64,000 nucleotides of DNA from Candidatus Wildermuthbacteria bacterium (GCA_016181405.1 JACOZJ010000003.1:106749-170748); one strand, 5' to 3'. Shown: positions 6,178 through 63,540, numbered from the stretch's first letter. The notes: a model not told the origin generated them from the sequence alone. Numbers and translations: made by a program.

Positions 6178-8713
6178 CATTGCGAAATCATCGCTTGCTC
6201 CAGCGTTGTGGTTTGACAGCTATTTTCAAACTGCAGTTCTGCGTAAAATCCGCAGGGCGACTCAATGGGTATTCGCCCTTCTGCTTTTGCTTTTCCTTCT
6301 AACCTTTATTCCGAGTGAAGGCCTAGTCTCCCCGGGTACCAGTAGAGTTCTCCTTGGCTTCGTGCTTTTGAGTTTCGCGTATGGAGCTACGATATTTCTC
6401 CTCGAGCGATTTGGAGAGAGTTTGCAAAGACCGCGTTTGCGTTTTGGAGAAGAAAATCTTGCTAACCTTTTTTCATTCTCTGTGCTCCACGCCGCCCAAA
6501 ACGCAATGAAACGCGCAAAACAAAAACGCTTTTTCGGAGTAGATTCAAAGCTGTTGCTTTATTTTCTTCTAAGAGAAAACTCATCGCTGGAATTTGTGCT
6601 TTTCCGCATGCTGTTGGACCCAAACGAATTGAGGAGAGAAATTGAAAGAGAATTTGATTCACAGCCACGTCGCCTGCAAAAAACAAAAGAGGTTACATTC
6701 GCTCCTGACTTTATGGAAACCATACGCAAGGCAATTGATCGGGCGCAAATTCAGGGGCGGGAAAAGACTGAAGTTGAGGATGTACTTGCTGTCTTAGCGG
6801 AAACCGACGCCTTTTTCACGCGATATTTAATTGAGCGGGGATTTGTTCCGGAGCGCGACGTTCCCAATGTGGCTGAATGGCACTACCGAGAACGCGTCAA
6901 AAGCGAAGAGCAAAAAAAGTTCTGGCTCAAAAAAAATCTGCGGCGCTATGGCACGATCGGAAGGGACTGGGCCGCGGGTTACACAATTACGCTCGATCAA
7001 TTCGGATACGACCTTTCCCGAGAAGTAATGGCTGCACGCTTCCCTCGTGCAATCGGACACCAGCAGGAAAAAGAAATGATGGAACGCATTCTCTCACGTC
7101 AGGAAACGAATAATGTGCTGCTCTGCGGCAATCCGGGATCCGGACGAAAACGCTTGATTCAGGACTTGGCTTCTAAAAGCCAGCTGGGCGCGTGTCAAAA
7201 CCAGCTTCTCAACTACAAACGCTTTGTGGAACTTGATCTCGCGCATGTGATGTCTTCCATCCAATCGCTGGAAGAAGCAGAGGCGATCTTAAGCGAGATT
7301 TTCCGCGAAGTTCTTGCGGCCGGCAACATCATTTTAGTTATAGACGATCTACATAACTTTGTGGGGGAATTCACCGAACCTGCCGCGGGACGAGTAAATA
7401 TTGCGGGCGTGCTCTCCTCATATCTGCGAATCCCGGAGTTTCCGTTTATTGCTATAACCACATTTGCCGGACTCCATCGATATCTGGAGCAAAACCCTTC
7501 GCTGCTTTCTTTTTTTGAAAAGATAGAAGTAACAGAACTTTCCCAAGCAGAAACACTGGAGGTGCTGGAAGAAACCGTCCCTATCTTTGAAGCAACATAC
7601 AAGAAATTCATTTCCTACCCCGCATTGCAAGCAATCGTGGCGTACGCGGACAAATATATTCAGGCCCTGCCTTTTCCAAAAAAGGCATTGGACTTACTGG
7701 ACGACACCATGAGCTGGATTGCCCAAACCGCAGATAAAGTACTTATGCCAGATCACGTCGCTCGCGTGGTTACTGAACGCACACAGATTCCGGTAGGAGA
7801 CATTGAAACCACGGAACGAGAAACTCTACTGGACCTGGAAGTCCTTATCCATAAGCGAATCATCAACCAAGAAGAGGCAGTGCGCGAAGTTGCTTCTGCT
7901 CTGCGCCGCGCAAGGGCGCAGGTAGCAACGCGCCAAGGGCCCATGGGTAGTTTTCTATTTCTCGGCCCCACCGGAGTAGGAAAGACCGAAACCGCAAAGG
8001 CGTTGGCCGCTATTTACTTTGGATCTGAAGGCCGCATTATACGTTTGGATATGTCCGAATTCCAAAACGTAAAGGACATAGACCGACTATTGGGCACTCC
8101 AGTACAAGAAGGCCTACTTACCACTGCGGTCAGAGAAAATCCTTTTTCCCTCATTTTGCTAGACGAACTCGAAAAGGCTCATCCGAACATCCTTAACCTG
8201 TTCCTCCAGGTGTTGGACGAAGGGCATGTTACCGATGGTCTGGGCCGCAAAACCGACTTTCGCCACACCATTATTATTGCCACAAGCAACGCGGGGTATC
8301 TCCTTATCTTACAGGCGATAAAACAGCAAACTGATTTTGCTCAACTCAAAACACAAATGCTTGACTATCTTTTTCATGAAGGAATTTATCGACCCGAATT
8401 TATAAACCGATTTGACGGCGTCATCCTATTTACTCCTCTCACACCGGATCACCTCCTCCAAATCGCCGGGCTCATGCTGCAAAAGCTTCAGCGAAATATG
8501 AAAGAAAAGGGCATTGAACTGGAGGTTACAGAAGAGCTCAAAGCGAAAATCGCAGAGCTCGGTTATGATCCAACATTCGGCGCGCGCAATATGCGCCGTG
8601 TATTACAAGACAAAGTAGAAAACGCGCTTGCCATCGCACTCCTTTCCAATACAATAAGCAGAGGGGATCGTATCACCGTTGACTCGCAAACTTTTGCTGT
8701 GAGAAAAACATAA
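6155..8713 (+). CDS. ClpA/ClpB/ClpC-family AAA+ ATPase with an N-terminal membrane anchor
   Basis: The second AAA module is canonical (FLGPTGVGKTETAKALA; LLDELEKAHPNILNLFLQVLDEGHVTD; ATSNAG), and the C-terminal D2-small domain has TFGARNMRRVLQ. The first module is degenerate (GNPGSGRKRL; VIDDLHNF). Two TM segments lie near the N-terminus. Confidence 0.8.
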   Translation: MASSFSFNIAKSSLAPALWFDSYFQTAVLRKIRRATQWVFALLLLLFLLTFIPSEGLVSPGTSRVLLGFVLLSFAYGATIFLLERFGESLQRPRLRFGEENLANLFSFSVLHAAQNAMKRAKQKRFFGVDSKLLLYFLLRENSSLEFVLFRMLLDPNELRREIEREFDSQPRRLQKTKEVTFAPDFMETIRKAIDRAQIQGREKTEVEDVLAVLAETDAFFTRYLIERGFVPERDVPNVAEWHYRERVKSEEQKKFWLKKNLRRYGTIGRDWAAGYTITLDQFGYDLSREVMAARFPRAIGHQQEKEMMERILSRQETNNVLLCGNPGSGRKRLIQDLASKSQLGACQNQLLNYKRFVELDLAHVMSSIQSLEEAEAILSEIFREVLAAGNIILVIDDLHNFVGEFTEPAAGRVNIAGVLSSYLRIPEFPFIAITTFAGLHRYLEQNPSLLSFFEKIEVTELSQAETLEVLEETVPIFEATYKKFISYPALQAIVAYADKYIQALPFPKKALDLLDDTMSWIAQTADKVLMPDHVARVVTERTQIPVGDIETTERETLLDLEVLIHKRIINQEEAVREVASALRRARAQVATRQGPMGSFLFLGPTGVGKTETAKALAAIYFGSEGRIIRLDMSEFQNVKDIDRLLGTPVQEGLLTTAVRENPFSLILLDELEKAHPNILNLFLQVLDEGHVTDGLGRKTDFRHTIIIATSNAGYLLILQAIKQQTDFAQLKTQMLDYLFHEGIYRPEFINRFDGVILFTPLTPDHLLQIAGLMLQKLQRNMKEKGIELEVTEELKAKIAELGYDPTFGARNMRRVLQDKVENALAIALLSNTISRGDRITVDSQTFAVRKT

Positions 8714-8743
8714 AATAAGCGCGACATCCCAAAAAACCAAAAA

Positions 8744-8788
8744 CAGCCCTTCGTCCGCCAGCTGGCGGACGAAGGGCTGTTTTTTTTA
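8744..8788 (+). terminator. rho-independent terminator
   Basis: CAGCCCTTCGTCCGCC AGCT GGCGGACGAAGGGCTG perfect 16-bp hairpin followed by a T8 run. Confidence 0.85.
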
Positions 8789-16958: not shown

Positions 16959-18386
16959 TTAAAAATCCACTACGAGCTCGGCGCCCTCTTCGTACTGCCG
17001 TGTCTTGTCGAGATCGGAAAAACTTACGACATTCGGGTTGAAGTACAACTTTACAGAACCTATGGGGCCATTCCGATGCTTTGCCACAATAATTTCCGCG
17101 ATATTTCCCGTATTTTGATCAGTCTCCTGCTTTTTATATTTATCTTCACGGTAAATAAACATCACCACGTCCGCATCCTGCTCCAAAGATCCTGACTCCC
17201 GCAGATCAGAGAGGCGCGGCCGAGGCGGGAAACGCTGTTCCACCGCGCGTGAAAGCTGCGAAATCGCAAGTACCGGTACGGTAAGTTCGCGCGCCAGCCC
17301 CTTGAGCTGACGAGAAATTTCGGTAACCTGCTGCACAATGCCCGTCAAACTGTTTGACGGCGTAATCAGCTGTAGGTAATCAATAATAATGAGTCCGAGG
17401 CCATGATTTGCCTGCAAACGCCGAGCCATTGCCCGCATGCGCAGCACGGTTTGCGAAGGGGTATCGTCGATATAGAGAGGAGCTTCAGATAATACGCCAA
17501 GCGCCTCCTGAATGCGGATAAAATCGTTGTCGTCCCCTTGGGAAGAAAGCTTTCCCGTGCGCAGCCGCCACGAATCCACGTTGCCTTGAGCCGCGATCAT
17601 ACGGTCGATTAACTGATCTTTCGACATCTCCAAACTAAAGAAGCCAACGGGAACGTGCTCTTGTACCGCGACTCTCCGCGCGATATCCAAAGCCAGAGCG
17701 GATTTTCCCAAAGAAGGGCGTGCCGCCAAAATAATAAGATCCGAAGGCTGAAAACCAGAGAGCAAATTGTCCATATCCGCAAAGCCGGTGGGGATGCCGC
17801 GCGTTGCTTTCTCATGCTTGGAAAGCTTATCGAGACGCTCAAATGCTTCTTCCAACTCTTCTTTAATGTGAATAAAGTTGTGCGAGAGCGATTTTTGAGC
17901 GATGGAAAAAATCTTCTGCTCGGCCTGATCTACGAGCACGTTGGGATCTTCCTTTTCATTATATCCCATTTGGCCGATTTCATAGGAAGTGGAAATCAAG
18001 TCGCGCAGAATCCTTTTATTCTGCACGGTTTTCGCGTAGCTCGCCACATGTGCGGCAGTAGGCACAGTATTGATAACTTCGGTCAAGTAGCTGCGCCCGC
18101 CGATTTCCTCTATTTTTTCCTTGTCTTTCAGTCGGCTTGAAACCGAAAGTAAATCAACGGGTTCGTTCCTGGCAAACAAATCCAGCATGGCTTCGTAAAT
18201 AATCCGATGGCTTGGCTTATAAAAATCGCGTGGCTCAAGCAAATCAGCCACCTTCACGATGGCCTCTTTATCCAGCATTAAACTCCCCAAAAGGCACATT
18301 TCAGATTCTATGCTTTGTGGAGGAAGTTTATCCAGCGCCTCTATTTTTCTATCTCCTGCCTGCGCAGGCAAACCTGCTTCTGCCAT
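16959..18386 (-). CDS. dnaB: replicative DNA helicase DnaB
   Basis: PPQSIESEMCLLGSLML N-terminal domain, Walker A ARPSLGKSALALD, IIIDYLQL, and SRQLKGLARELTVPVLAISQLSR. Confidence 0.9.
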   Translation of the reverse strand: MAEAGLPAQAGDRKIEALDKLPPQSIESEMCLLGSLMLDKEAIVKVADLLEPRDFYKPSHRIIYEAMLDLFARNEPVDLLSVSSRLKDKEKIEEIGGRSYLTEVINTVPTAAHVASYAKTVQNKRILRDLISTSYEIGQMGYNEKEDPNVLVDQAEQKIFSIAQKSLSHNFIHIKEELEEAFERLDKLSKHEKATRGIPTGFADMDNLLSGFQPSDLIILAARPSLGKSALALDIARRVAVQEHVPVGFFSLEMSKDQLIDRMIAAQGNVDSWRLRTGKLSSQGDDNDFIRIQEALGVLSEAPLYIDDTPSQTVLRMRAMARRLQANHGLGLIIIDYLQLITPSNSLTGIVQQVTEISRQLKGLARELTVPVLAISQLSRAVEQRFPPRPRLSDLRESGSLEQDADVVMFIYREDKYKKQETDQNTGNIAEIIVAKHRNGPIGSVKLYFNPNVVSFSDLDKTRQYEEGAELVVDF

Positions 18387-18396
18387 AGTATCTTTT

Positions 18397-19809
18397 CTAT
18401 ACCAGCTTTTTCAGTTTCCAGCCAGAGGGCGTATCTTCAACAGCCCAACCTCGCTTTTGCATTGCCGCGCGAAGCGCATCGGCTTCCTGAAAATCCCCTT
18501 GTCTGCGATATGCCTCCCGCTGCTCCGCGAGCTTTTTAATTTCTGCCGGAACAACCTGCTTCTCACGCCCCCGAAAAATAAAACCGAAAAGTTCGTCTAT
18601 CTCCTTAAGAAAAGCTAGAATTTCCTTCCTCTCTGCCTTCGATAGTTTTCCCTCGTCCATCCGCGTATTCTCCTCACGAATTAAATCGAACAAAATTGAA
18701 ATCGCCAGCGTCGTATTCAAATCATCTTCCATCGCCTTCTCGAAAGAATCCTTGATCCTTTTAAGTTTAAGGTTTGCTTGAGACTTGTCCGCCAGATGGC
18801 GGATTGAAGCTTGAGGTTTTTCACGCAGACGATCCATAAACTCGTCAATCTTCCCCAATTCATTCTGCGTCTGTTCGAGCACTTCCTCGGAATAATCAAT
18901 AGGGGAGCGATAATGCGTTTTTAGAACAAAGTATCGAAGAAGTCTAGGGGAATGTTCCTTTAGGAAATCCCGAATGGTAATGAAATTTCCCACAGATTTT
19001 GACATTTTTTCGCCCCTCACTGTAAGAAAGCCCGTATGCATCCAATATTTTACAAACGGCTTTTTGCCCGATACAGATTCCATTTGCGTAATTTCTGCCT
19101 CGTGGTGGGGGAATATTAAATCCTGCGCGCCTCCGTGAATGTCGTATTGCGGGCCAAAAAACTTTTCGGTAATGGCAGTATCCTCAATATGCCAGCCGGG
19201 CCTTCCCCACCCCCAGGGAGATTTCCACTTTGGCTCTCCTGGCTTACTAAACTTCCACAACGCAAAATCGCCCTTGTTACGCTTGCTGACAGACTCGTCT
19301 ATACGTGACACAGCATCTTTGGCCTGTCCTGTAGTGCGGCGAGAAAGCTTGCCATATTCTTTGAACTTGGAAATATCAAAATATATCCCATCACCTTCAA
19401 TTTCATAGGCGTATCCCTTTTTAAGCAAGCGCCGAATCTGATCGATTATTTCTGCGATATGGTCGGTTGCCCTTGCATAGGTGTTCACCGCGCTTACGCC
19501 TAAAGCCTTCATATCTGCCCGATATTCTTTCTCGAATCTTCGCGCCAGCTTTTTGGGATCTTCGCCAAGTTCTTTTGCGCGCTGGATAATCTTGTCGTCT
19601 ATATCTGTTACATTTTGCAAGTAAAAAACATCGTAACCCTTTTGGCGCAAATACTTTGCAATCATATCAAAAGCAATGTAGGTGCGCGCGTGCCCCAAGT
19701 GCGAAAAATCATAGACGGTAATACCACACACAAAAAAGTTTATCTTTTTGCCTTTTCTGGGCTTGAGTATTTCTTCTTTGCGCGAAAGTGTGCTATAAAT
19801 CTTCACCAT
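18397..19809 (-). CDS. cysS: cysteine--tRNA ligase
   Basis: HLGHARTY (HIGH) and KMSKS motifs with a typical MVKIYSTLSRKEE start. The 88-codon upstream ORF extension overlaps the divergent gene and is discarded. Confidence 0.9.
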   Translation of the reverse strand: MVKIYSTLSRKEEILKPRKGKKINFFVCGITVYDFSHLGHARTYIAFDMIAKYLRQKGYDVFYLQNVTDIDDKIIQRAKELGEDPKKLARRFEKEYRADMKALGVSAVNTYARATDHIAEIIDQIRRLLKKGYAYEIEGDGIYFDISKFKEYGKLSRRTTGQAKDAVSRIDESVSKRNKGDFALWKFSKPGEPKWKSPWGWGRPGWHIEDTAITEKFFGPQYDIHGGAQDLIFPHHEAEITQMESVSGKKPFVKYWMHTGFLTVRGEKMSKSVGNFITIRDFLKEHSPRLLRYFVLKTHYRSPIDYSEEVLEQTQNELGKIDEFMDRLREKPQASIRHLADKSQANLKLKRIKDSFEKAMEDDLNTTLAISILFDLIREENTRMDEGKLSKAERKEILAFLKEIDELFGFIFRGREKQVVPAEIKKLAEQREAYRRQGDFQEADALRAAMQKRGWAVEDTPSGWKLKKLV

Positions 19810-19852
19810 AATGGGCTCATCATACCATGGGGGGGACGAATTTTCCATGATA

Positions 19853-19861
19853 TGGTACAAT
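19853..19861 (+). promoter_or_regulatory. extended -10 element (TGgTACAAT) placed for a leaderless or near-leaderless mRNA
   Basis: TG-n-TACAAT ends at 19861 and the ATG of the next gene is at 19870. No SD is present in between. Confidence 0.4.
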
Positions 19862-19869
19862 AGCAACGC

Positions 19870-20487
19870 ATGAACAAAAACGACCTGTTTTTTAGCGCTG
19901 TTGCAGGACTTCTGGCCGCAGTTTTCCTGCTTGCCATAAAGTATTCCGGCAATATTATTACTATCCACGATATTTCGTATCTTGAGGCAACACTCTTGCT
20001 CTTTCCCGCACTGGCTGTGCTCGGCATTCGCATAGCGGCCATCTTCGGGCAGCGATTCTCCGTACTTTTTCAAGCGGCCAAGTTTCTCTTGGTAGGGGGG
20101 CTCAACACGTTCGTGGACCTTGGCATACTGAATATTCTCATTGCGGCAAGCGGCATTACCGCAGGAATCGGCTTTTCTATATTCAAGGGATTTTCATTCC
20201 TCATTGCAGTTGGGAACAGTTACCTCTGGAACAAATATTGGACATTTGGGGAAAAGAAATCGAAACAGGATTTTATAGCGCAAGGAAAGGAATTCGCCCA
20301 ATTTTTGCTAATAAGCGGCATTGGTTTTTTCTTAAACGTGGGGACGGCCTCTGCGGTAGTGAACTTTATCAGCCCGCAGTTCGGGCTTTCGGCCCGCGCG
20401 TGGCCTACTGTAGGAGCTTTAGCAGGAACATTGGTGGTCATGACGTGGAATTTTCTTGGTTATAAGTTTGTCGTATTCAAGCGATAA
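19870..20487 (+). CDS. GtrA-family membrane protein
   Basis: Four-TM layout with FLLVGGLNTFVDLGILNIL and YLWNKYWTF motifs typical of GtrA-like proteins. Confidence 0.7.
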   Translation: MNKNDLFFSAVAGLLAAVFLLAIKYSGNIITIHDISYLEATLLLFPALAVLGIRIAAIFGQRFSVLFQAAKFLLVGGLNTFVDLGILNILIAASGITAGIGFSIFKGFSFLIAVGNSYLWNKYWTFGEKKSKQDFIAQGKEFAQFLLISGIGFFLNVGTASAVVNFISPQFGLSARAWPTVGALAGTLVVMTWNFLGYKFVVFKR

Positions 20488-20488
20488 C

Positions 20489-21613
20489 ATGGTACTGTAT
20501 CGAAAATATCGCCCCAAATCCTTCAGCGAAGTTGCGGGCCAGGAACACATCGTGCAAACGCTTAAAAACGCAGTAGCAGGAGATCTGCTTTCGCACGCGT
20601 ATTTATTTTCAGGCCCGAGGGGTTCTGGCAAAACAAGTTTAGCCCGCCTCCTCGCCAAAGCAATTAACTGTGAACACTCGAAAGAAGGCCCGCCTGCGCA
20701 GGCAGGGGAACCCTGCAATGTCTGCTCGTTCTGTGAGGAAATAAATCATGGCCGCGCCATCGACTTAATTGAGATTGACGCCGCATCCAATAGGGGAATC
20801 GACGAAATGCGCGAATTGCGTGAAGGCATTGCGTTCGCCCCCGTCAAACTGAAATACAAAGTATTTATTATTGATGAAGCGCACCAGCTTACGAAGGAGG
20901 CCGCAAATGCTTTGCTCAAAACACTGGAAGAACCGCCCTCGCACGCTATTTTTATCCTTGCTACTACGGAAGCCCATAAGATGATTCCTACTATAGCTTC
21001 GCGTTGCCAGCGTTTTGATTTTCGCAAACTCACAGTGCCTGAAATCACGGGAAAACTCAAAGAAATAGTAAAAGCAGAAAACGCGGACATCGACAAAGAA
21101 GCACTCCAGCTCATTGCGCTGAACGCGGGCGGATCCTTACGCGATGCGCTTGGTTTGCTTGACAAAGTTTTGACTTTTCATTCTATTCTTGATACAAAGG
21201 AGGGGATCGGCGCAGATACCATAAAGACGCTGCTCGGGTTGGTGGATTTAAATCTCGTAGGCGAATTCGTCCAACTGCTTGCCGATAGAAAGGCCGGCGA
21301 AGCCGTCGATTTCCTCAACAAAAATTTGGAAGAGGGGATGGATCCTCAAGAATTCACCAAAAACCTCGTCCGCTATCTGCGGCATACGCTTGTGCTAAAG
21401 ATCAACCCGCAGCTGGAAAAAATGTTTGAGAACGAGTTTACGAAAGAGCAGTTGGAACGAATGCAACAACAATCGCAACAGTTTGACGAAAAGCTTTTGC
21501 CGCGTATCGTCGAAAACTTTATGGAAGCCGAGCAGAAAATGAAATATTCCAGTATAATACAACTCCCTCTGGAATTGGCGATTATTGAATCGTGCGGAAT
21601 AGGGGAGCAATAA
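20489..21613 (+). CDS. dnaX: DNA polymerase III subunit gamma/tau
   Basis: MVLYRKYRPKSFSEVAGQEHIV, Walker A GPRGSGKTS, a Cys zinc module, Walker B FIIDEAH, and SRCQRFDF. Confidence 0.85.
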   Translation: MVLYRKYRPKSFSEVAGQEHIVQTLKNAVAGDLLSHAYLFSGPRGSGKTSLARLLAKAINCEHSKEGPPAQAGEPCNVCSFCEEINHGRAIDLIEIDAASNRGIDEMRELREGIAFAPVKLKYKVFIIDEAHQLTKEAANALLKTLEEPPSHAIFILATTEAHKMIPTIASRCQRFDFRKLTVPEITGKLKEIVKAENADIDKEALQLIALNAGGSLRDALGLLDKVLTFHSILDTKEGIGADTIKTLLGLVDLNLVGEFVQLLADRKAGEAVDFLNKNLEEGMDPQEFTKNLVRYLRHTLVLKINPQLEKMFENEFTKEQLERMQQQSQQFDEKLLPRIVENFMEAEQKMKYSSIIQLPLELAIIESCGIGEQ

Positions 21614-21622
21614 TGCCGGACC

Positions 21623-21642
21623 ACCTGCCTGCGCAGGCAGGT
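21623..21642. repeat. perfect 20-nt GC-rich palindrome (ACCTGCCTGCGCAGGCAGGT)
   Basis: Lies 10 nt after the dnaX stop and 25 nt before tRNA-Gln. It shares the 15-mer GCCTGCGCAGGCAGG with 20691-20705 (inside dnaX) and 18356-18370 (inside dnaB, minus strand). Confidence 0.85.
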
Positions 21643-21667
21643 CTAATTGAAAACAAGAATTGAGTAA

Positions 21668-21738
21668 TGCGGGATCGTCTAATGGTAGGACATCGCCCTT
21701 TGGAGGCGAGTATCTTGGTTCGAATCCAAGTCCCGCAG
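21668..21738 (+). tRNA. tRNA-Gln (anticodon UUG)
   Basis: Acceptor TGCGGGA/TCCCGCA (U1-A72) and G73 discriminator typical of tRNA-Gln. Anticodon stem TCGCC/GGCGA with loop CTTTGGA, T arm CTTGG-TTCGAAT-CCAAG. Confidence 0.85.
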
Positions 21739-21756
21739 CAAGGAAGGAGGTGCGAG

Positions 21757-42626: not shown

Positions 42627-42833
42627 ATGGATTTTCTATTCATCATTGGGCTATTGCTCGTGATTGGGGTGGTAGGGATGATATATTTCATGGGTAAGCA
42701 ACAAAAGAAGCAAACCCCTCCTTCTCAAGGATCGCAACCTCCAACATCCGCCTCTGCCTCGTCGGCAGACAGGCAGCAGGGTGGACAATCTACCCCGCCG
42801 GCAAATAGGCCTCCTCAGACTCCAGTTTCATAG
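42627..42833 (+). CDS. small membrane protein with a P/Q/S-rich tail
   Basis: 68 aa with one TM (FLFIIGLLLVIGVVGMIYFM) followed by a low-complexity tail. A terminator follows. Confidence 0.4.
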   Translation: MDFLFIIGLLLVIGVVGMIYFMGKQQKKQTPPSQGSQPPTSASASSADRQQGGQSTPPANRPPQTPVS

Positions 42834-47304: not shown

Positions 47305-49437
47305 ATGTTTTTTCGCAGTTTTAAGAAAGAGCTAACGGTGTATGCGCTAGGGCTTGTGTTTGTAACCATAAGCTTAACGACCGCTATTAGTATCTTTTCC
47401 ACAAAAACCGCTGGGGACGATGCGGCAAAAGCGACGAGCGAAGTATTGAGGGCACAAGCAGAAGAATTACTTATTCAGGTCGCAACATCCGCAGCGCAAC
47501 AGCAAGATCTTGTGTTTGAACAGATTAGAAATGATACCGAAAATCTCGCCTTTTATACAAGCAATATATACGAGAACCCGTCTGTTTTTTTAACAAAAGG
47601 TTACTGGGATTTCGATACTCGCGTTATTCGTAAAGATGGACGTTACATAAACAGCCCGTCTGATATATCAACATTTCATATTCCCTCATTTGTTATTCTT
47701 GATGAAGCCGAGAGAGAAAACATAGAGCTTGCCGCGGTTCTTGATTTTATTGTTCCAAGCATACTGGACAATCGCGAAAATATCGCCGCAATCTATTCGA
47801 TAGATAACGAAGGTGTAACTCGTTACCTTCCGAATATCGTGCTCGGAGAGCTTGGGCCTCCCGACTATGACCCGAGAGAGGATATTTACTATTCGCCGGC
47901 AATCCCGGCAAACAATCCCGAAAGAAAAGTAATATGGTCTCCATTGTATGATGATGCGGCAGGTCGCGGTCTTATGATTACTGTTACCGCGCCGGTGTAT
48001 ACCCAAGACGAGTTTATGGGTATTGTCGCTACGGACGTGTTGCTTGAGAACATCATTAATACCATTACCGCGTATAGTCCCATAGAGGACTCTTATGCTT
48101 TTTTGATAGATAAGAAAGGGATTACAATCGCCTTCCCCGATAAAGCCTATGAGGATATCCTGGGAAGGCCGCACGCTCCTCAAGAAGGCAGGATAAATCT
48201 TTTCGATCAGGATCTATCTAAAGAATTTGCCGCGTCCCTAAAAACTATGAGCGGCGGCGCAACCGGATTTAGCGTTCTCCACAACGGAGAAAAGGGGAAT
48301 TTATTCCTAGCATACGCGCCCCTCGAACAAACGGGATTCAGCATGGGCATTGTTGCTGAAGAAGAGATTGTTCTGAAGGCGGTGGCAACGCTTCATGAAG
48401 AAATATCGAGCTCCATCCGCAGCACGATCATAAATTTGATTCTTCCAACGAGCTTATTTATCATATCTGCCGCGATTCTAATCGGCATTTTTATGTCCAA
48501 TCAAGTGGTGAAACCAATACAAAAGTTGATGGAGGGTGCACGAGAGATAGGAAGGGGTAATTTGGATTATCGTATAAAAATCAAAAGCAGAAATGAAATC
48601 GGTGAGCTCGCGTCATCTTTTAACCGCATGGGCAGCTCGCTTAAAAAATCGAGGCAGGAATTATACGAGTATAGCCAAAGTCTAGAGGAACAGGTCAAAG
48701 AAAGAACAAATGAGCTAACTTCCGCGAATTCCCGACTCCGCGAGCTGGATGCGGCAAAGTCAGAATTTATTTCCATAGCGTCACATCAGCTGCGCACGCC
48801 GCTTACTGCAGCAAAAGGATATCTGTCGCTCGCGCTAGAAGGAACATACGGAAAGCTTGCAGAGAAAGTGAGAAAACCGATGTCCAAGGTATACGAATCC
48901 AATGAGCGGCTCATTCGCCTGGTAAACGATCTTTTGAGTTTGTCGCGCATTGAATCTGGTAAAATGAAACTTGAGCCCGTAGATACGAATATCGAAGAAA
49001 TGATCGCAAGCATCGTTGACGAACTCAAAGTAAAGGCGACACAGAAAAATCTGGAACTTATTTTTCAAAAGCCAAAACCTGCTTTGCCGATACTTCGGGT
49101 TGATTCAGAAAAAGTGCGCAACGCGGTTTTGAATATTATTGACAATTCTATTCGTTATACAAACACTGGATCTATTACAGTACACGCAGTGCAACTCGAG
49201 AATGCAATACGCATTACGATTACCGATACCGGAGAGGGGATGACAAAAGAAGAAATCGGCAAACTTTTTGAAAGCTTTTCGCGCGGCCAGGCGGGAGCAA
49301 AACTTTCCACGGAAGGCGCAGGCCTTGGCTTGTATATCGCCAAACAATTTGTCCAAATGCACAAAGGTAAAATCTGGGCCGAGTCAGAAGGCAAAGGGAA
49401 AGGATCTACCTTCCATATCGAACTCCCGGTAAGATAA
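47305..49437 (+). CDS. sensor histidine kinase with an extracytoplasmic Cache-like domain and HAMP
   Basis: Two TM segments flank a ~330-aa ectodomain. HAMP (PIQKLMEGAREIGRGNLDYRI), H-box SHQLRTPLT, and N/G boxes (DNSIRYT, DTGEGM, GAGLGL). Confidence 0.85.
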   Translation: MFFRSFKKELTVYALGLVFVTISLTTAISIFSTKTAGDDAAKATSEVLRAQAEELLIQVATSAAQQQDLVFEQIRNDTENLAFYTSNIYENPSVFLTKGYWDFDTRVIRKDGRYINSPSDISTFHIPSFVILDEAERENIELAAVLDFIVPSILDNRENIAAIYSIDNEGVTRYLPNIVLGELGPPDYDPREDIYYSPAIPANNPERKVIWSPLYDDAAGRGLMITVTAPVYTQDEFMGIVATDVLLENIINTITAYSPIEDSYAFLIDKKGITIAFPDKAYEDILGRPHAPQEGRINLFDQDLSKEFAASLKTMSGGATGFSVLHNGEKGNLFLAYAPLEQTGFSMGIVAEEEIVLKAVATLHEEISSSIRSTIINLILPTSLFIISAAILIGIFMSNQVVKPIQKLMEGAREIGRGNLDYRIKIKSRNEIGELASSFNRMGSSLKKSRQELYEYSQSLEEQVKERTNELTSANSRLRELDAAKSEFISIASHQLRTPLTAAKGYLSLALEGTYGKLAEKVRKPMSKVYESNERLIRLVNDLLSLSRIESGKMKLEPVDTNIEEMIASIVDELKVKATQKNLELIFQKPKPALPILRVDSEKVRNAVLNIIDNSIRYTNTGSITVHAVQLENAIRITITDTGEGMTKEEIGKLFESFSRGQAGAKLSTEGAGLGLYIAKQFVQMHKGKIWAESEGKGKGSTFHIELPVR

Positions 49438-49438
49438 C

Positions 49439-51064
49439 ATGGAGAACTTTTCACTTGATTTTGCTCAAATACGATTCTTCACATTTATTGTTGCGCTCCT
49501 TATAAATTTTGGTCTAGCACTGCTTCTTTTGCGATACAGCCGTCAGAGCATACCTCACCGATTTTTTCTAATCTTTCTTGCCACTCAAACACTTTGGCTA
49601 ATAATAATGTATTTATCCTTACAGGCGTCGAAGGATTATCTTTTATTGATGGCCAGAATATCGCTATTTTTTGGATCCTTTCATGCGCTATTCCTATTTC
49701 TTTTCGTTTATATCCTCTGGAAACATAAAATTTCCAAACACTTTTTGGTTTGCTTATTGGTTACCACAACATTAGTTGCTGGGTTTGCCCTTTCTCCCTT
49801 TGTTTTCTCGCATCTCGAATTTAATAGCGCAAACGAGCTTGCGCCAAAGGCAGCTTTTGGAATAATTGTTTTTGCGCTCTTTACTGGATTTTGCGTCTTC
49901 GGAGCATCTTATGTCCTTATCAAACAGTATCTTTCTTCGCGAGGCTTAGAAAAAACTCACTGGGGGTACCTAGCAATAGGGATGACCCTAACTTACTCCC
50001 TCGTAATGTTTTTTGATGTTCTCTATTACAACACAACCGGAAACCTCAACGTCATCCGTCTAAATCACCTGTACGTTTTACCATTTCTCCTTTCTGCAAG
50101 TTACGTTCTTTTACGCCATCACTTCCTCCACATTAAGGTATTGGCAGCTGAACTCTTTGCATTTCTCATCATCGGCGTCTCGATAGTGCAACTTACGTTT
50201 GTGCGCACGGTCACGGAACTTCTTTTTAGCGCAACTCTTTTTATTCTCCTTGTGATTTTTTCGATGCTTCTGATACGCAGTATGAACAAGGAAGTGCAGC
50301 ATCGGGCGCAGGAAGCGGCGTACGAAGAACTACAGAAGCTGGACGAGGCGAAGTCAGAATTTATTACGATTGCATCGCACCAGTTGCGCACACCCTTGAG
50401 CGGACTCAAAGGGTATATTTCCATGGCGCAAGAGGGAAGCTATGGAAAACCGCCCGCCAAAATGCAAAAAACGCTCGGCAATATGGCCCAAGCAACCGAA
50501 CGCTTAATTTCGCTCGCGGACAGCTTTTTGAACGTGTCCCGGATGCGGAGCGGAAAGATTGAGTTGAATCGTCAGGAAACTGATATGAAAACTTTTGTTG
50601 GTGCAATTGTTGAGGAAATGAGACCAGCTGCTGAAAAGAAGGGATTAAATCTTATGTGGAAAATGCCCACGGAAAATCTGCCTCACGTTTCCATTGACCA
50701 AGACAAAATCCGCACGGTACTCTCGGGAGTTTTGGACAACGCGATTCGATACACAGAAAAAGGAAGCATAACAATACAAATCAAAGAGCAAAAAACCCGC
50801 CTTCGCCTTGGCGAAGGCGGACAAAGTAGGGAAGTGCTCATCTCGGTTGCCGACACCGGGAAGGGCTTAACAAAAGAGGAGATAAAGGATATATTTACCA
50901 GCTTCAAGCGCGGCAAAACCGCGCAAGCTCTCTGGACCGAAGGCGTAGGCCTTTCGCTCTACATTGCAAAACAGCTCGTGGAAGCTCACGGCGACAGAAT
51001 TTGGGCAGAGTCCAAGGGACCCGGGAGGGGAAGTACCTTTTACATCAATCTCCCTCTTGTCTAG
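49439..51064 (+). CDS. sensor histidine kinase with a multi-TM N-terminal sensor domain
   Basis: About 7 TM segments, then H-box SHQLRTPLS, DNAIRYT, DTGKGL and GVGLSL. It starts 1 nt after the upstream kinase's stop codon. Confidence 0.85.
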   Translation: MENFSLDFAQIRFFTFIVALLINFGLALLLLRYSRQSIPHRFFLIFLATQTLWLIIMYLSLQASKDYLLLMARISLFFGSFHALFLFLFVYILWKHKISKHFLVCLLVTTTLVAGFALSPFVFSHLEFNSANELAPKAAFGIIVFALFTGFCVFGASYVLIKQYLSSRGLEKTHWGYLAIGMTLTYSLVMFFDVLYYNTTGNLNVIRLNHLYVLPFLLSASYVLLRHHFLHIKVLAAELFAFLIIGVSIVQLTFVRTVTELLFSATLFILLVIFSMLLIRSMNKEVQHRAQEAAYEELQKLDEAKSEFITIASHQLRTPLSGLKGYISMAQEGSYGKPPAKMQKTLGNMAQATERLISLADSFLNVSRMRSGKIELNRQETDMKTFVGAIVEEMRPAAEKKGLNLMWKMPTENLPHVSIDQDKIRTVLSGVLDNAIRYTEKGSITIQIKEQKTRLRLGEGGQSREVLISVADTGKGLTKEEIKDIFTSFKRGKTAQALWTEGVGLSLYIAKQLVEAHGDRIWAESKGPGRGSTFYINLPLV

Positions 51065-61541: not shown

Positions 61542-62066
61542 ATGCGATACACGATTAAAACAAAACGGCTCTTATTGCGTCCATACAGGGGAGAAGACGA
61601 AGAAGCGCTTGTGAGGAATATCAACAGCAAGAAGGTTTATCGTGCGACTTTGCATATTCCGTATCCCTATACTGCACAAGACGCGAAGCAATGGATTGCG
61701 AAAAACCGCAAGCTGGCGAAACAAAAAAACCCAGAATCGGTAAACTTTGTTATTGAAATGAACGGAGAATTGATAGGCGGAATTGGATTCGATGACGTAG
61801 AAAAAAATCACAGAGCAGAGATAGGCTATTGGCTCGGAGAAAAATACTGGGGGCAGGGGATTACAACCGAGGCCGTAAGGGCTGTTACAAAATTTGGCTT
61901 TGAAAAACTAAAATTGCGGAGAATTTATGCCTGCGTGTATCCATTCAATAAAGCTTCAATGAACGTTCTCAAAAAAAGCGGCTATAAGTTCGAAGGGCTT
62001 ATCAGGAAAAATGTAATGAAAAACGGCAAATTACTGGATGATTACCAGTTTGCAAAAGTAAAGTAA
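61542..62066 (+). CDS. GNAT-family N-acetyltransferase (RimJ/RimL-like)
   Basis: LLLRPYRGEDEEAL...IGYWLGEKYWGQGITTEAV...NKASMNVLKKSGYKFEG. Confidence 0.8.
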   Translation: MRYTIKTKRLLLRPYRGEDEEALVRNINSKKVYRATLHIPYPYTAQDAKQWIAKNRKLAKQKNPESVNFVIEMNGELIGGIGFDDVEKNHRAEIGYWLGEKYWGQGITTEAVRAVTKFGFEKLKLRRIYACVYPFNKASMNVLKKSGYKFEGLIRKNVMKNGKLLDDYQFAKVK

Positions 62067-62070
62067 TGAC

Positions 62071-63540
62071 ATGGGGGTAGGGGAATTAAGGAAAAAATAT
62101 CCTTTATTTATTTATAGGGGATACTCATACGTGTTGAAAGAAGGAAATTTGTATATCTCTTTTGATTTTGAGGTGCCTGCCTCGCCGGCAGGCGGGCCAC
62201 CAGACATTTCATTTCATCCGAAGATTGTTATCAAAAACATTTCACAGCGAGATATAAAGAGGGTAGGGGATGAAGCATTGCAAAATTTCGTATTCCATCT
62301 GGGCCTGGCAGAAATGCCGAGCTATTGGAAAGCAACGGCATCCCCGAAAATTATCGTAGAAGCAGGATACTTGGATAAAACGCAGATCAATTGGTGGCAT
62401 GATTTGTTTATGAGAGGAATGGGGCAGTATTTCTACGAGAACAAAATTAAATTCACAAACAAAAATTTTCTTACCATCACTACCGCCAGCCGCGTAGGCC
62501 GTGCGGGGACAGTCCTAGCACAAGCTTGTGCTAGGACTGTCCCCGCACAAACGCTGGTGCCCGTCGGGGGAGGAAAAGATGCTATTGTCACATACGAAAT
62601 TCTGAAGAAAGCCCTTCGACAAGTCTTTGACTCCGAGGCTCAGACTCGAGGAGCTCAGGGTAAACAAAAAATCCAGCCATTTGTGCTAAACCCGAAAAAG
62701 GAACAGCTTGCGATTCTCCGCATAGCGGGCGAAACGAATCCCATAGTTGTCGATCGCGAGATTGACTCCACATTGCTTGAGTTAAATCGCAAGGGCTACC
62801 TCAATGGCCACACTCCGTTTTCCGCATATCTTGCATTTCTCACGGTTTCATGCGCCACGCTTTTCGATTACCAGTATATCGCGCTTTCCAACGAACGAAG
62901 CTCAAATGAAGGAAATGTGAACTATCTCGGAAGCATCGTAAACCATCAATATTCCAAGTCATGGGAATTTGAGAAAAAGTTTCGCGCGTACAGTAAAAAA
63001 TATTTAGCCAAAGACATTGAATACTTTAGCTTTCTCCGACCTCTATATGAACTGCAAATCGCAAAATTGTTTTCGCAGTATCCTAAATATTTTGCGACAT
63101 TTCTAAGCTGCAACGAAGCACACAAAACCCACTCTGGCACCCGCAAACCTGCAGAAAAATGGTGTGGTAAATGTTCGAAATGCTTGTTTGTGTTCGCGAG
63201 CCTCTATCCATTTGTGGGAACAGAACAATTGGTAAACATATTTGGCTCAAACCTATTTGAAGACGCAAATCTCATACCACTCATGGAAGAGTTAGCAGGG
63301 GAGCGAAAGTTCAAACCTTTTGAATGCGTTGGCACCACCAAAGAAAGTTTGGCTGCTTTTTACTTAAGTCTGCAAAAAACATATCCGCCTTTGCCAACGC
63401 TTTTGAAACACTTTCGCCAGCATATTGCAAAAAAACACCTCCATCTGCCGCAAGAATCACGACAAATGCTGAAAAGCTGGAATACTGTCCACGCATTGCC
63501 ACTCCGTCTGGAAAAAGAGCTCAAATCCGTGCTAGGATAA
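62071..63540 (+). CDS. conserved-looking protein of unknown function with a PP-loop-like motif, in a mur cluster (candidate MurL-type enzyme)
   Basis: 489 aa. VPVGGGKDAIVT resembles the SGGKDS ATP-pyrophosphatase loop, and CGKCSKC forms a late Cys cluster. It lies between mraY/GNAT and murD. The CDS is confident; the function is not. Confidence 0.6.
   Translation: MGVGELRKKYPLFIYRGYSYVLKEGNLYISFDFEVPASPAGGPPDISFHPKIVIKNISQRDIKRVGDEALQNFVFHLGLAEMPSYWKATASPKIIVEAGYLDKTQINWWHDLFMRGMGQYFYENKIKFTNKNFLTITTASRVGRAGTVLAQACARTVPAQTLVPVGGGKDAIVTYEILKKALRQVFDSEAQTRGAQGKQKIQPFVLNPKKEQLAILRIAGETNPIVVDREIDSTLLELNRKGYLNGHTPFSAYLAFLTVSCATLFDYQYIALSNERSSNEGNVNYLGSIVNHQYSKSWEFEKKFRAYSKKYLAKDIEYFSFLRPLYELQIAKLFSQYPKYFATFLSCNEAHKTHSGTRKPAEKWCGKCSKCLFVFASLYPFVGTEQLVNIFGSNLFEDANLIPLMEELAGERKFKPFECVGTTKESLAAFYLSLQKTYPPLPTLLKHFRQHIAKKHLHLPQESRQMLKSWNTVHALPLRLEKELKSVLG

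Follow-up and report, generated by a model that had tools for sequence, protein, structure and literature searches.

The 64,000-nt stretch of a Candidatus Wildermuthbacteria genome analyzed here (GCA_016181405.1, JACOZJ010000003.1:106749-170748; this whole stretch is called the window below) raises the question of how one GC-rich palindromic segment, named here PAL-A, came to lie in frame in dnaB, in frame in dnaX, and once more between dnaX and a tRNA-Gln gene. A sequence-only reading of the window had noticed the 15-mer GCCTGCGCAGGCAGG three times within 3.3 kb and had offered two explanations, a short hairpin, mobile or recombinogenic, that essential proteins tolerate in their surface loops, or a selected DNA or RNA site. 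The former is supported by presence/absence polymorphism, by the non-conserved encoded peptide, by enrichment in low-GC loci and by the mapping of a copy to a protein loop. All three copies in the window were inserted after its lineage had split from the closest sampled relatives, and PAL-A, which is exactly 18 bp long and perfectly palindromic, is probably an insertion element of ultra-short size.

The copies in the window and their orthologous sites

The three copies examined contain the 15-mer at positions 18355-18369 (minus strand), 20692-20706 (plus strand) and, on both strands, within 21623-21642. The two genic sites are thus off by one from those first given (18356-18370 and 20691-20705), while the intergenic one is exact, and the 20-nt palindrome ACCTGCCTGCGCAGGCAGGT claimed between dnaX and tRNA-Gln is indeed perfect. 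The threefold occurrence within 3.3 kb was borne out: none of 100 dinucleotide-preserving shuffles contains a match to the 15-mer, and its 10-mer core CCTGCGCAGG has three sites in the 64 kb, all of them in PAL-A copies, with 0.08 expected. The repeated unit, however, is not 15 nt long, as had been supposed. Alignment of the copies defines it as the 18-mer CCTGCCTGCGCAGGCAGG, a perfect palindrome with 7-bp arms and the center GCGC, the 15-mer being its core.

The first copy (18355-18372, minus strand; TTTGCCTGCGCAGGCAGG on the coding strand, two mismatches to the 18-mer) occupies codons 5-11 of dnaB, the gene of the 475-aa replicative helicase (16959-18386, minus strand), and encodes (G)LPAQAG. 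The second copy (20689-20706, plus strand; CCCGCCTGCGCAGGCAGG, one mismatch) lies in dnaX, encoding the 374-aa gamma/tau protein of DNA polymerase III (20489-21613, plus strand), where its peptide (G)PPAQAG separates the zinc-module cysteines Cys1 and Cys2. The third copy (21624-21641, no strand assigned) has no mismatches, and the flanking A and T extend it to the 20-nt palindrome. Translation gives MAEAGLPAQAGDRK in DnaB and KEGPPAQAGEP in DnaX, in agreement with the peptides originally proposed. Both genic copies have their imperfect end at the 5' side on their own coding strand and share the frame G-[L/P]-P-A-Q-A-G; hence the claim that both orientations are seen in genes fails, as orientation and frame are the same relative to each coding strand.

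The closest sampled relative is represented by three independent assemblies, L001-L003, syntenic with the window over recR-dnaB-cysS and gtrA-dnaX-tRNA-Gln. In the global alignment of the window with L001, the DNA is 88% identical (positions 16959-21740), and DnaX is 93% identical. The DnaX protein of the window is also 100% identical to a protein from a metagenome-assembled genome (MAG) of Candidatus Colwellbacteria (P0001), the next relatives being from Wildermuthbacteria, so that the window belongs to a genome of the Patescibacteria.

In dnaB, the window and its relatives differ by a clean 18-nt indel, ATGGCAGAAGCAGG-TTTGCCTGCGCAGGCAGG-AGATAG in the window against ATGGCAGAAGCAGG-AGATAG in L001, and L001-L003 are all gapped here. 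The DnaB of this relative (P0121) is six residues shorter and 99% identical as a protein. The insert is absent from L007 and from the more distant DnaB N-termini, and the peptide PAQAG, whose conservation in orthologs the sequence-only reading had considered, is found in none of 120 DnaB relatives and in none of 120 DnaX relatives. In DnaX, the zinc loop has the form C-x14-C in the window and C-x8-C in most relatives (e.g. KNPKEGEP), the short loop closest in sequence being EHPKQGEP of P0034. Alignment with HMMER to the E. coli gamma/tau structures (1XXI, 1JR3, others) leaves a six-residue gap exactly at the insert, and in the AlphaFold model of DnaX (mean pLDDT 78) residues 61-79 are mostly coil, between helices 48-60 and 80-86. 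The dnaX copy therefore falls in the loop of the zinc module, as expected for an insert in a protein loop. The intergenic copy is a part of a 54-nt insertion relative to L001 (21611-21664, plus strand, the placement being ambiguous within the flanking TAATGC repeat).

In both genic copies, outer pairs of the stem are gone. The changed outer bases of the dnaB copy make the codons GGT TTG, synonymous with GGC CTG if the insert came as a perfect 18-mer. The calculated energy of the RNA hairpin is -13.3 kcal/mol for the perfect copy and -9.5 kcal/mol after this loss.

Distribution and reading frame of PAL-A

An exact-match scan of a 596-Gb collection with one genome per GTDB species found the 18-mer in at least 119 stretches of species-representative genomes. 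The counts in this section refer to the matches listed. According to the record titles, 70 of them come from Patescibacteria of all major classes, including Paceibacteria groups, Microgenomates groups, Saccharibacteria, WWE3, Dojkabacteria, Uhrbacteria and Magasanikbacteria; the others are mostly from Bacteroidota, from MAGs labelled Gammaproteobacteria, from Terriglobia and others, and two isolates, Litoribacter ruber and Rosettibacter primus, are among them. The host loci have mostly 32-50% GC and unrelated flanking sequences, and hence it is the 18-mer alone that is repeated. Loci with less than 50% GC contain 98 sites, while by our own arithmetic (not a tool output) the probability is about 1e-12 per site at 40% GC, and far fewer than one match is expected in the low-GC part. 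The 18-mer is therefore vastly in excess in low-GC genomes. Some high-GC matches look native or accidental, such as the SulP motif LAGLPAQAGLY in a Burkholderiaceae MAG.

Isolates and independent assemblies alike carry these elements. DnaX with PPAQAG is found on two contigs, from the NCBI and Logan listings, which are taken as independent assemblies, and other hairpin insertions are identical across the assemblies L001-L003. PAL-A is not an assembly artefact.

When perfect palindromes with a length of 14 nt or more were counted in 944 kb of DnaX-centered loci, only two GC-rich families proved to be shared across lineages, PAL-A and PAL-B (see below). Within this set, PAL-A occurs in lineages of the candidate phyla radiation (CPR) whose DnaX is only 47-49% identical to that of the window (L037, L071, L067). 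In particular, it is found in frame in the seryl-tRNA synthetase (SerRS) gene of L037, read as PACAGR, and in the lysyl-tRNA synthetase (LysRS) gene of L071, read as LPAQAG. At the LysRS site, L071 has the insert and L037, L055 and L060 do not; here, as in dnaB, the polymorphism comprises exactly 18 nt, the kind of presence/absence difference between orthologs that the sequence-only reading had looked for. At the SerRS site, L037 and L071 carry an insert that four outgroups lack. The host proteins are DnaB, DnaX, SerRS, LysRS, GatB, superoxide dismutase (two different loops), a pilin leader and others; in L110 (4602-5390), the LPAQAG insert lies in an apparent type IV pilin-like leader peptide, just before the hydrophobic segment WTLAELLIVVAIIAI. 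Bacteroidota have PAL-A as one module of larger intergenic repeats beside ordinary operons, and many of the intergenic copies point toward gene 3' ends.

Two possible vehicles were considered and rejected. The 18-mer occurs in 25 viral stretches, mostly of 58-67% GC, a range in which long GC palindromes are frequent. Just three of them have low GC content, which does not support phages as a vector. Composite transposons do not account for paired copies, as in L117 and L177 housekeeping genes, not transposases, lie between the copies.

The three frames of the 18-mer, identical on both strands, read PACAGR, LPAQAG and CLRRQ and contain no stop codon, and none of the junction codons (NNC, GGN, NCC, GNN) can be a stop. 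An insertion into a gene thus keeps the frame and adds six residues. Long open reading frames (ORFs, at least 150 aa) contain 56 of the 98 low-GC sites, and the frames there are strongly unequal: LPAQAG in 41 cases, PACAGR in 12 and CLRRQ in 3 (chi-square p = 7e-10), with no such bias in PAL-A outside long ORFs. This points to translation of the segment and to filtering by selection, and speaks against its removal at the RNA level. Judging from the frame bias and the sites, the copies would be translated and persist only where six extra residues are harmless, as in the N-terminal tail of DnaB and the zinc loop of DnaX, and they appear to persist preferentially in the frame giving the bland peptide LPAQAG.

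The immediate flanks of the copies are also biased. Position -1 is a purine and position +1 a pyrimidine in about 78% of cases, non-coding copies included, while positions 2-8 are near the background. No target-site duplication is present at the dnaB, tRNA-Gln and LysRS sites, and flank repeats overall are not in excess over chance. The same 7-bp arms carry different centers, GCGC (18 nt), GCCGGC (20 nt) and CGCCGAC (21 nt), and the sister lineages L037 and L071 have the 18-nt and the 21-nt form at one SerRS site. A possibly related arrangement is seen in the window itself at 42754-42776, where the PAL-A arms surround an 11-nt center (CTGCCT-CGTCGGCAGAC-AGGCAG) in a region with no long ORF.

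The split tRNA-Gln fragment and other palindromes

The 54-nt intergenic insertion consists, in this order, of the tRNA-Gln 5' piece TGCCGGACCA (21614-21623), PAL-A, TCTAAT (21642-21647) and a 20-nt spacer. The two pieces around the palindrome correspond to nucleotides 1-10 and 11-16 of a decayed tRNA-Gln, split at nt 10/11, and the intact tRNA-Gln(UUG) gene (21668-21739, plus strand) follows directly 3' of this remnant. In L001 and L004, tRNA-Gln abuts or overlaps the dnaX stop codon. A tRNA-Gln split by PAL-A at the same nt 10/11 was found in five other genomes (L067, L111, L121, L122, L193), each with an intact tRNA-Gln within about 20-400 nt. In L067, L111 and L193, the split fragment is followed directly by a GIY-YIG ORF, and in L121 by an ORF with HNH-type motifs, so that these four share the layout tRNA-Gln nt 1-10, palindrome, nt 11-22, GIY-YIG or HNH ORF, intact tRNA. 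In L122, the palindrome is alone in a second, otherwise full-length tRNA copy, with the intact tRNA and a GIY-YIG gene upstream. The small endonuclease ORFs at tRNA-Gln beside dnaX are located at 11131-11427 in L067, 1725-2032 in L111, 3530-3941 in L121 and 6762-7191 in L122, and one is also found in L193; with each of these insertions, part of the tRNA 5' end is duplicated. In CPR loci at large, GIY-YIG ORFs are frequent just downstream of dnaX and tRNA-Gln. As a general mobilizer of PAL-A the GIY-YIG enzyme was rejected: it is linked to PAL-A only at tRNA-Gln, is not enriched at other PAL-A sites and is absent from the window.

The remnant TGCCGGACCA matches the L121 remnant in 9 of 10 positions and the window's own tRNA in only 7 of 10, which hints that the intergenic copy may have come horizontally on a homing cassette, the endonuclease gene having been lost since. 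This copy is not a canonical terminator, as the hairpin is followed by CTAATTG and lacks the T-run (U-tract in RNA) that an intrinsic terminator needs. A terminator scan did not call it and called only the antisense strand of the dnaX copy. At the gathering threshold, the Rfam 15 scan of the window matched only three tRNAs.

The second family, PAL-B, has the form (A)TCCGCCAGCTGGCGGA(T), is shared across lineages and reads IRQLAD, SASWR or PPAGG. The cysS gene call (from 18397, minus strand) contains an imperfect copy, TCCGCCAGATGGCGGA (18788-18803, minus strand), in frame and encoding IRHLAD; the copy at the same cysS site in L001 is perfect, ATCCGCCAGCTGGCGGAT. A second L001 copy in cysS is an 18-nt indel relative to the window. 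The PAL-B sites are 18788-18803 and 8739-8784 in the window and 8256-8273 and 9251-9266 in L001, with further ones in L022, L068, L149, L180 and L188. A 46-nt perfect palindrome that is flanked by A5 and T5 and resembles a bidirectional terminator also has PAL-B as its core, and in L149 PAL-B lies a few tens of nucleotides from a PAL-A copy.

Longer hairpins are found in frame as well. A 24-nt GC-rich hairpin, CCGCCTTCGC-CTTG-GCGAAGGCGG (50797-50820, plus strand), encodes TRLRLGEGGQ in the ORF 49433-51064; its left arm ACCCGCCTTCGCC recurs in the DnaX zinc loop of two other lineages, L229 and L230, read as TRLRQGYGGQ and as a loop of 26 residues. A 48-nt perfect palindrome, GTGCGGGGACAGTCCTAGCACAAGCTTGTGCTAGGACTGTCCCCGCAC (62501-62548, plus strand), lies in frame in the ORF 62062-63540 (492 aa), and cysS of L001-L003 has an insertion of this family (8690-8735 in L001), with a 33-nt gap in the window. 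Most 100-nt segments of the alignment between the window and L001 have identity of 0.9-0.97, and the values of 0.45-0.8 are found mainly at hairpin indels.

The DnaX zinc loop (residues 61-76; 20669-20716 in the window) contains hairpins of at least four families across lineages. GC-rich hairpin insertions of 3-18 residues are found at the same position in L001, L004, L020 and L229-L232, making it a hot spot. In one DnaB relative, the N-terminal tail contains PPAGG, a PAL-B peptide. The varied hairpins in the DnaX loop, together with PPAGG in the DnaB tail, mark these as recurrent permissive sites. Two other DnaB relatives, P0126 and P0147, carry different additional residues at this point of the tail (FEKPFDKTQG and SERSPEGRQ), which may be further hairpin insertions.

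Relation to known elements and origin of PAL-A

Full-text literature searches with the DNA sequences, the encoded peptides and descriptive terms returned no description of PAL-A. It most resembles two known kinds of elements, working like a miniature Rickettsia palindromic element (RPE) and looking like a REP hairpin, but it fails defining features of both. RPEs are palindromic repeats found in frame in unrelated, often essential genes, where they are translated and compatible with the protein fold, with several families per genome (PMC10969869). PAL-A is similar in its in-frame, translated insertion into unrelated genes and in the presence of several families. RPEs, however, are about 100-150 bp long, diverged at the family level and limited to Rickettsia and relatives, while PAL-A has 18 bp, is exact and occurs in CPR classes and other phyla with an apparently low copy number per genome, failing the RPE length and host range.

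REP and REPIN sequences are described as short GC-rich hairpin palindromes without target duplication, whose movement in trans is ascribed to a Y1 (HUH) enzyme present in single copy (PMC3116915, PMC3337134, PMC8266576), and REPs are tagged by a GTAG or CGTC tetranucleotide (PMC3733652). PAL-A shares the short GC-rich palindrome and the lack of target duplication, and its Bacteroidota copies lie in intergenic repeats as REPs do, but it has no GTAG or CGTC tag, only the purine/pyrimidine bias at positions -1 and +1. Moreover, REPs are extragenic, 20-40 bp long, imperfect, species-specific and present in tens to hundreds of copies, while more than half of the low-GC PAL-A sites listed are in long ORFs, and the sequence is identical across phyla. 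The one clear RAYT-like gene near PAL-A has different cognate hairpins (see below).

Other short repeats are more distant. MITEs (miniature transposable elements with inverted repeats), such as Correia, ERIC and BOX, are small non-autonomous repeats able to make in-frame fusions (PMC10969869). They have terminal inverted repeats around an internal segment, a length of at least about 50 bp and target duplications, whereas PAL-A has none of these, the whole unit being one palindrome. In yeast mitochondria, GC clusters and byp elements are short, GC-rich, palindromic, mobile-looking clusters of AT-rich genomes, sometimes situated inside protein genes; they differ in being organellar, about 30-55 nt long and variable, and byp is bypassed by the ribosome, while PAL-A is likely translated. 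HIP1 of cyanobacteria and the DNA uptake sequences of Neisseria and Pasteurellaceae are 8-12 nt long and abundant in coding regions, and uptake sequences, which are found as inverted pairs, are concentrated in genes of genome maintenance. These arise by substitution, at about one per kb, while PAL-A copies are discrete 18-nt insertions, three in the 64-kb window and all of them indels.

Our preferred explanation is a hairpin element mobilized in trans, with homing cassettes as the route between genomes. The intergenic copy could have arrived in a cassette homing to tRNA-Gln and could then have seeded the two genic copies 1-3 kb away, both steps being less secure than the insertions themselves. 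Since there is no target duplication, the flanks show the purine/pyrimidine bias and the sequence is identical across phyla, our best guess is that copying would be done by a trans-acting sequence- or hairpin-specific enzyme, either a single-strand transposase of the HUH type or a nuclease acting through break repair.

Several observations weigh against this explanation. The ORFs within 2.5 kb of PAL-A, when clustered, gave no consistently adjacent family, and no mobilizing enzyme was found among them. Only two CPR loci, L115 and L113, have a RAYT-like Y1 transposase gene near PAL-A, at a distance of 170-195 nt, and it scores E = 4.5e-9 with NCBIfam REP_Tyr_transpos, below the curated cut-off; neither the window nor the 84 DnaX-centered loci contain such a gene. 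The RAYT-like HUH transposase is not supported as the enzyme of PAL-A, there being only these two loci and the L115 gene being flanked by different hairpins. Preferential insertion into pre-existing hairpins was rejected, as empty and random sites do not differ in folding energy (p = 0.23). Perfect copies number about 1-7 per genome among the matches listed, unlike classic proliferating repeats, the center-length variants on the same arms are not explained by simple copy-and-paste, and a perfect 18-bp dyad is also typical of the site of a dimeric DNA-binding protein. Finally, the clustering of the three window copies in 3.3 kb is a post-hoc observation.

The L115 locus deserves a separate mention. 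At 1495-2227 of this Kaiserbacteria MAG, the RAYT-like Y1 (HUH) gene lies between inverted 25-nt hairpins, (A/G)ACTTAGAGGTG(A/T)CACCTCTAAGT(T/C), which is the classic REP-RAYT arrangement in a CPR genome.

The main rival to a mobilized element is that PAL-A is a scar or filler of break repair tied to homing endonucleases, left where a GIY-YIG or HNH enzyme cuts, e.g. at nt 10/11 of tRNA-Gln, and making the sealed site immune to re-cutting. We consider it unlikely, although the tRNA-Gln sites speak for it: six unrelated genomes have PAL-A at nt 10/11 beside an intact tRNA-Gln, a GIY-YIG or HNH ORF adjoins in all of them except the window, and in L122 PAL-A alone interrupts an otherwise full-length second tRNA copy. 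The missing target duplications, the local sequence turnover around hairpin sites and the different hairpin families at one DnaX loop position also fit. Yet a constant 18-bp filler has no known source, templated repair normally yields inserts of variable length, and beyond tRNA-Gln GIY-YIG ORFs are not enriched near PAL-A, the window having none. Somewhat less probable still is the second of the two original proposals, a selected cis site such as a dimeric-protein operator or an RNA hairpin acting in termination, processing or stability, which would be maintained at every site by its function, here in replication genes. The perfect dyad with a biased flanking base pair, the -13.3 kcal/mol hairpin, the intergenic copies facing gene 3' ends, those within the larger Bacteroidota repeats, and the exact conservation across phyla would agree with it. 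As a general explanation it is nevertheless unsupported, because nearly identical orthologs of essential genes differ in whether they have a copy, and the host genes are unrelated. Moreover, the frame bias reflects selection on the peptide, the genic copies have already lost outer stem pairs, and the intergenic copy has no T-run and matches no Rfam family.

Removal of the 18 nt from RNA, as a mini-intron or an excised hairpin whose coding content is irrelevant, is very improbable. CPR bacteria carry insertions in rRNA genes, and PAL-A does lie within tRNA-Gln sequences; however, each split tRNA-Gln adjoins an intact copy and is itself truncated or decayed, a 41:12:3 frame bias is not expected of a spliced segment, and copies decaying by point substitutions keep the frame. 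As for chance, codon-driven convergence on PAQAG, or an assembly or library artefact, the native-looking high-GC matches and the GC content of most viral matches (58-67%) show where accidental occurrences may be sought, but these possibilities are close to negligible in general and effectively refuted for the window by the shuffles, by the 98 listed low-GC sites and by relatives lacking both the peptide and the DNA, the artefact being contradicted by the independent assemblies and isolate genomes.

Returning to the element mobilized in trans, a broader proposal can be made only tentatively, and we think it rather less likely than the status of PAL-A as an insertion element. PAL-A, PAL-B and the longer hairpins might together form a previously unrecognised "nano" class of mobile elements, exact 18-bp palindromes built frame-neutral and stop-free, spread within and between phyla by a conserved hairpin- or sequence-specific enzyme system, possibly via tRNA homing cassettes, and continually remodelling surface loops of essential CPR proteins.

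If confirmed, PAL-A would be smaller than any other insertion element known to spread across phyla and would point to an enzyme with 18-bp palindromic specificity, of possible practical interest. It would provide a sharp marker of recent recombination and horizontal transfer in uncultured lineages, and annotators would be warned that LPAQAG, PACAGR, PPAGG and IRQLAD in CPR proteins are insertions rather than conserved motifs. For the biology of CPR bacteria, it would mean that the essential genes of these streamlined genomes are repeatedly hit by in-frame palindromes, which would show where DnaB, DnaX, aminoacyl-tRNA synthetases and further conserved proteins are naturally permissive, and that selfish DNA in essential genes may follow a simple rule: six codons, no possible stop, and a bland peptide.

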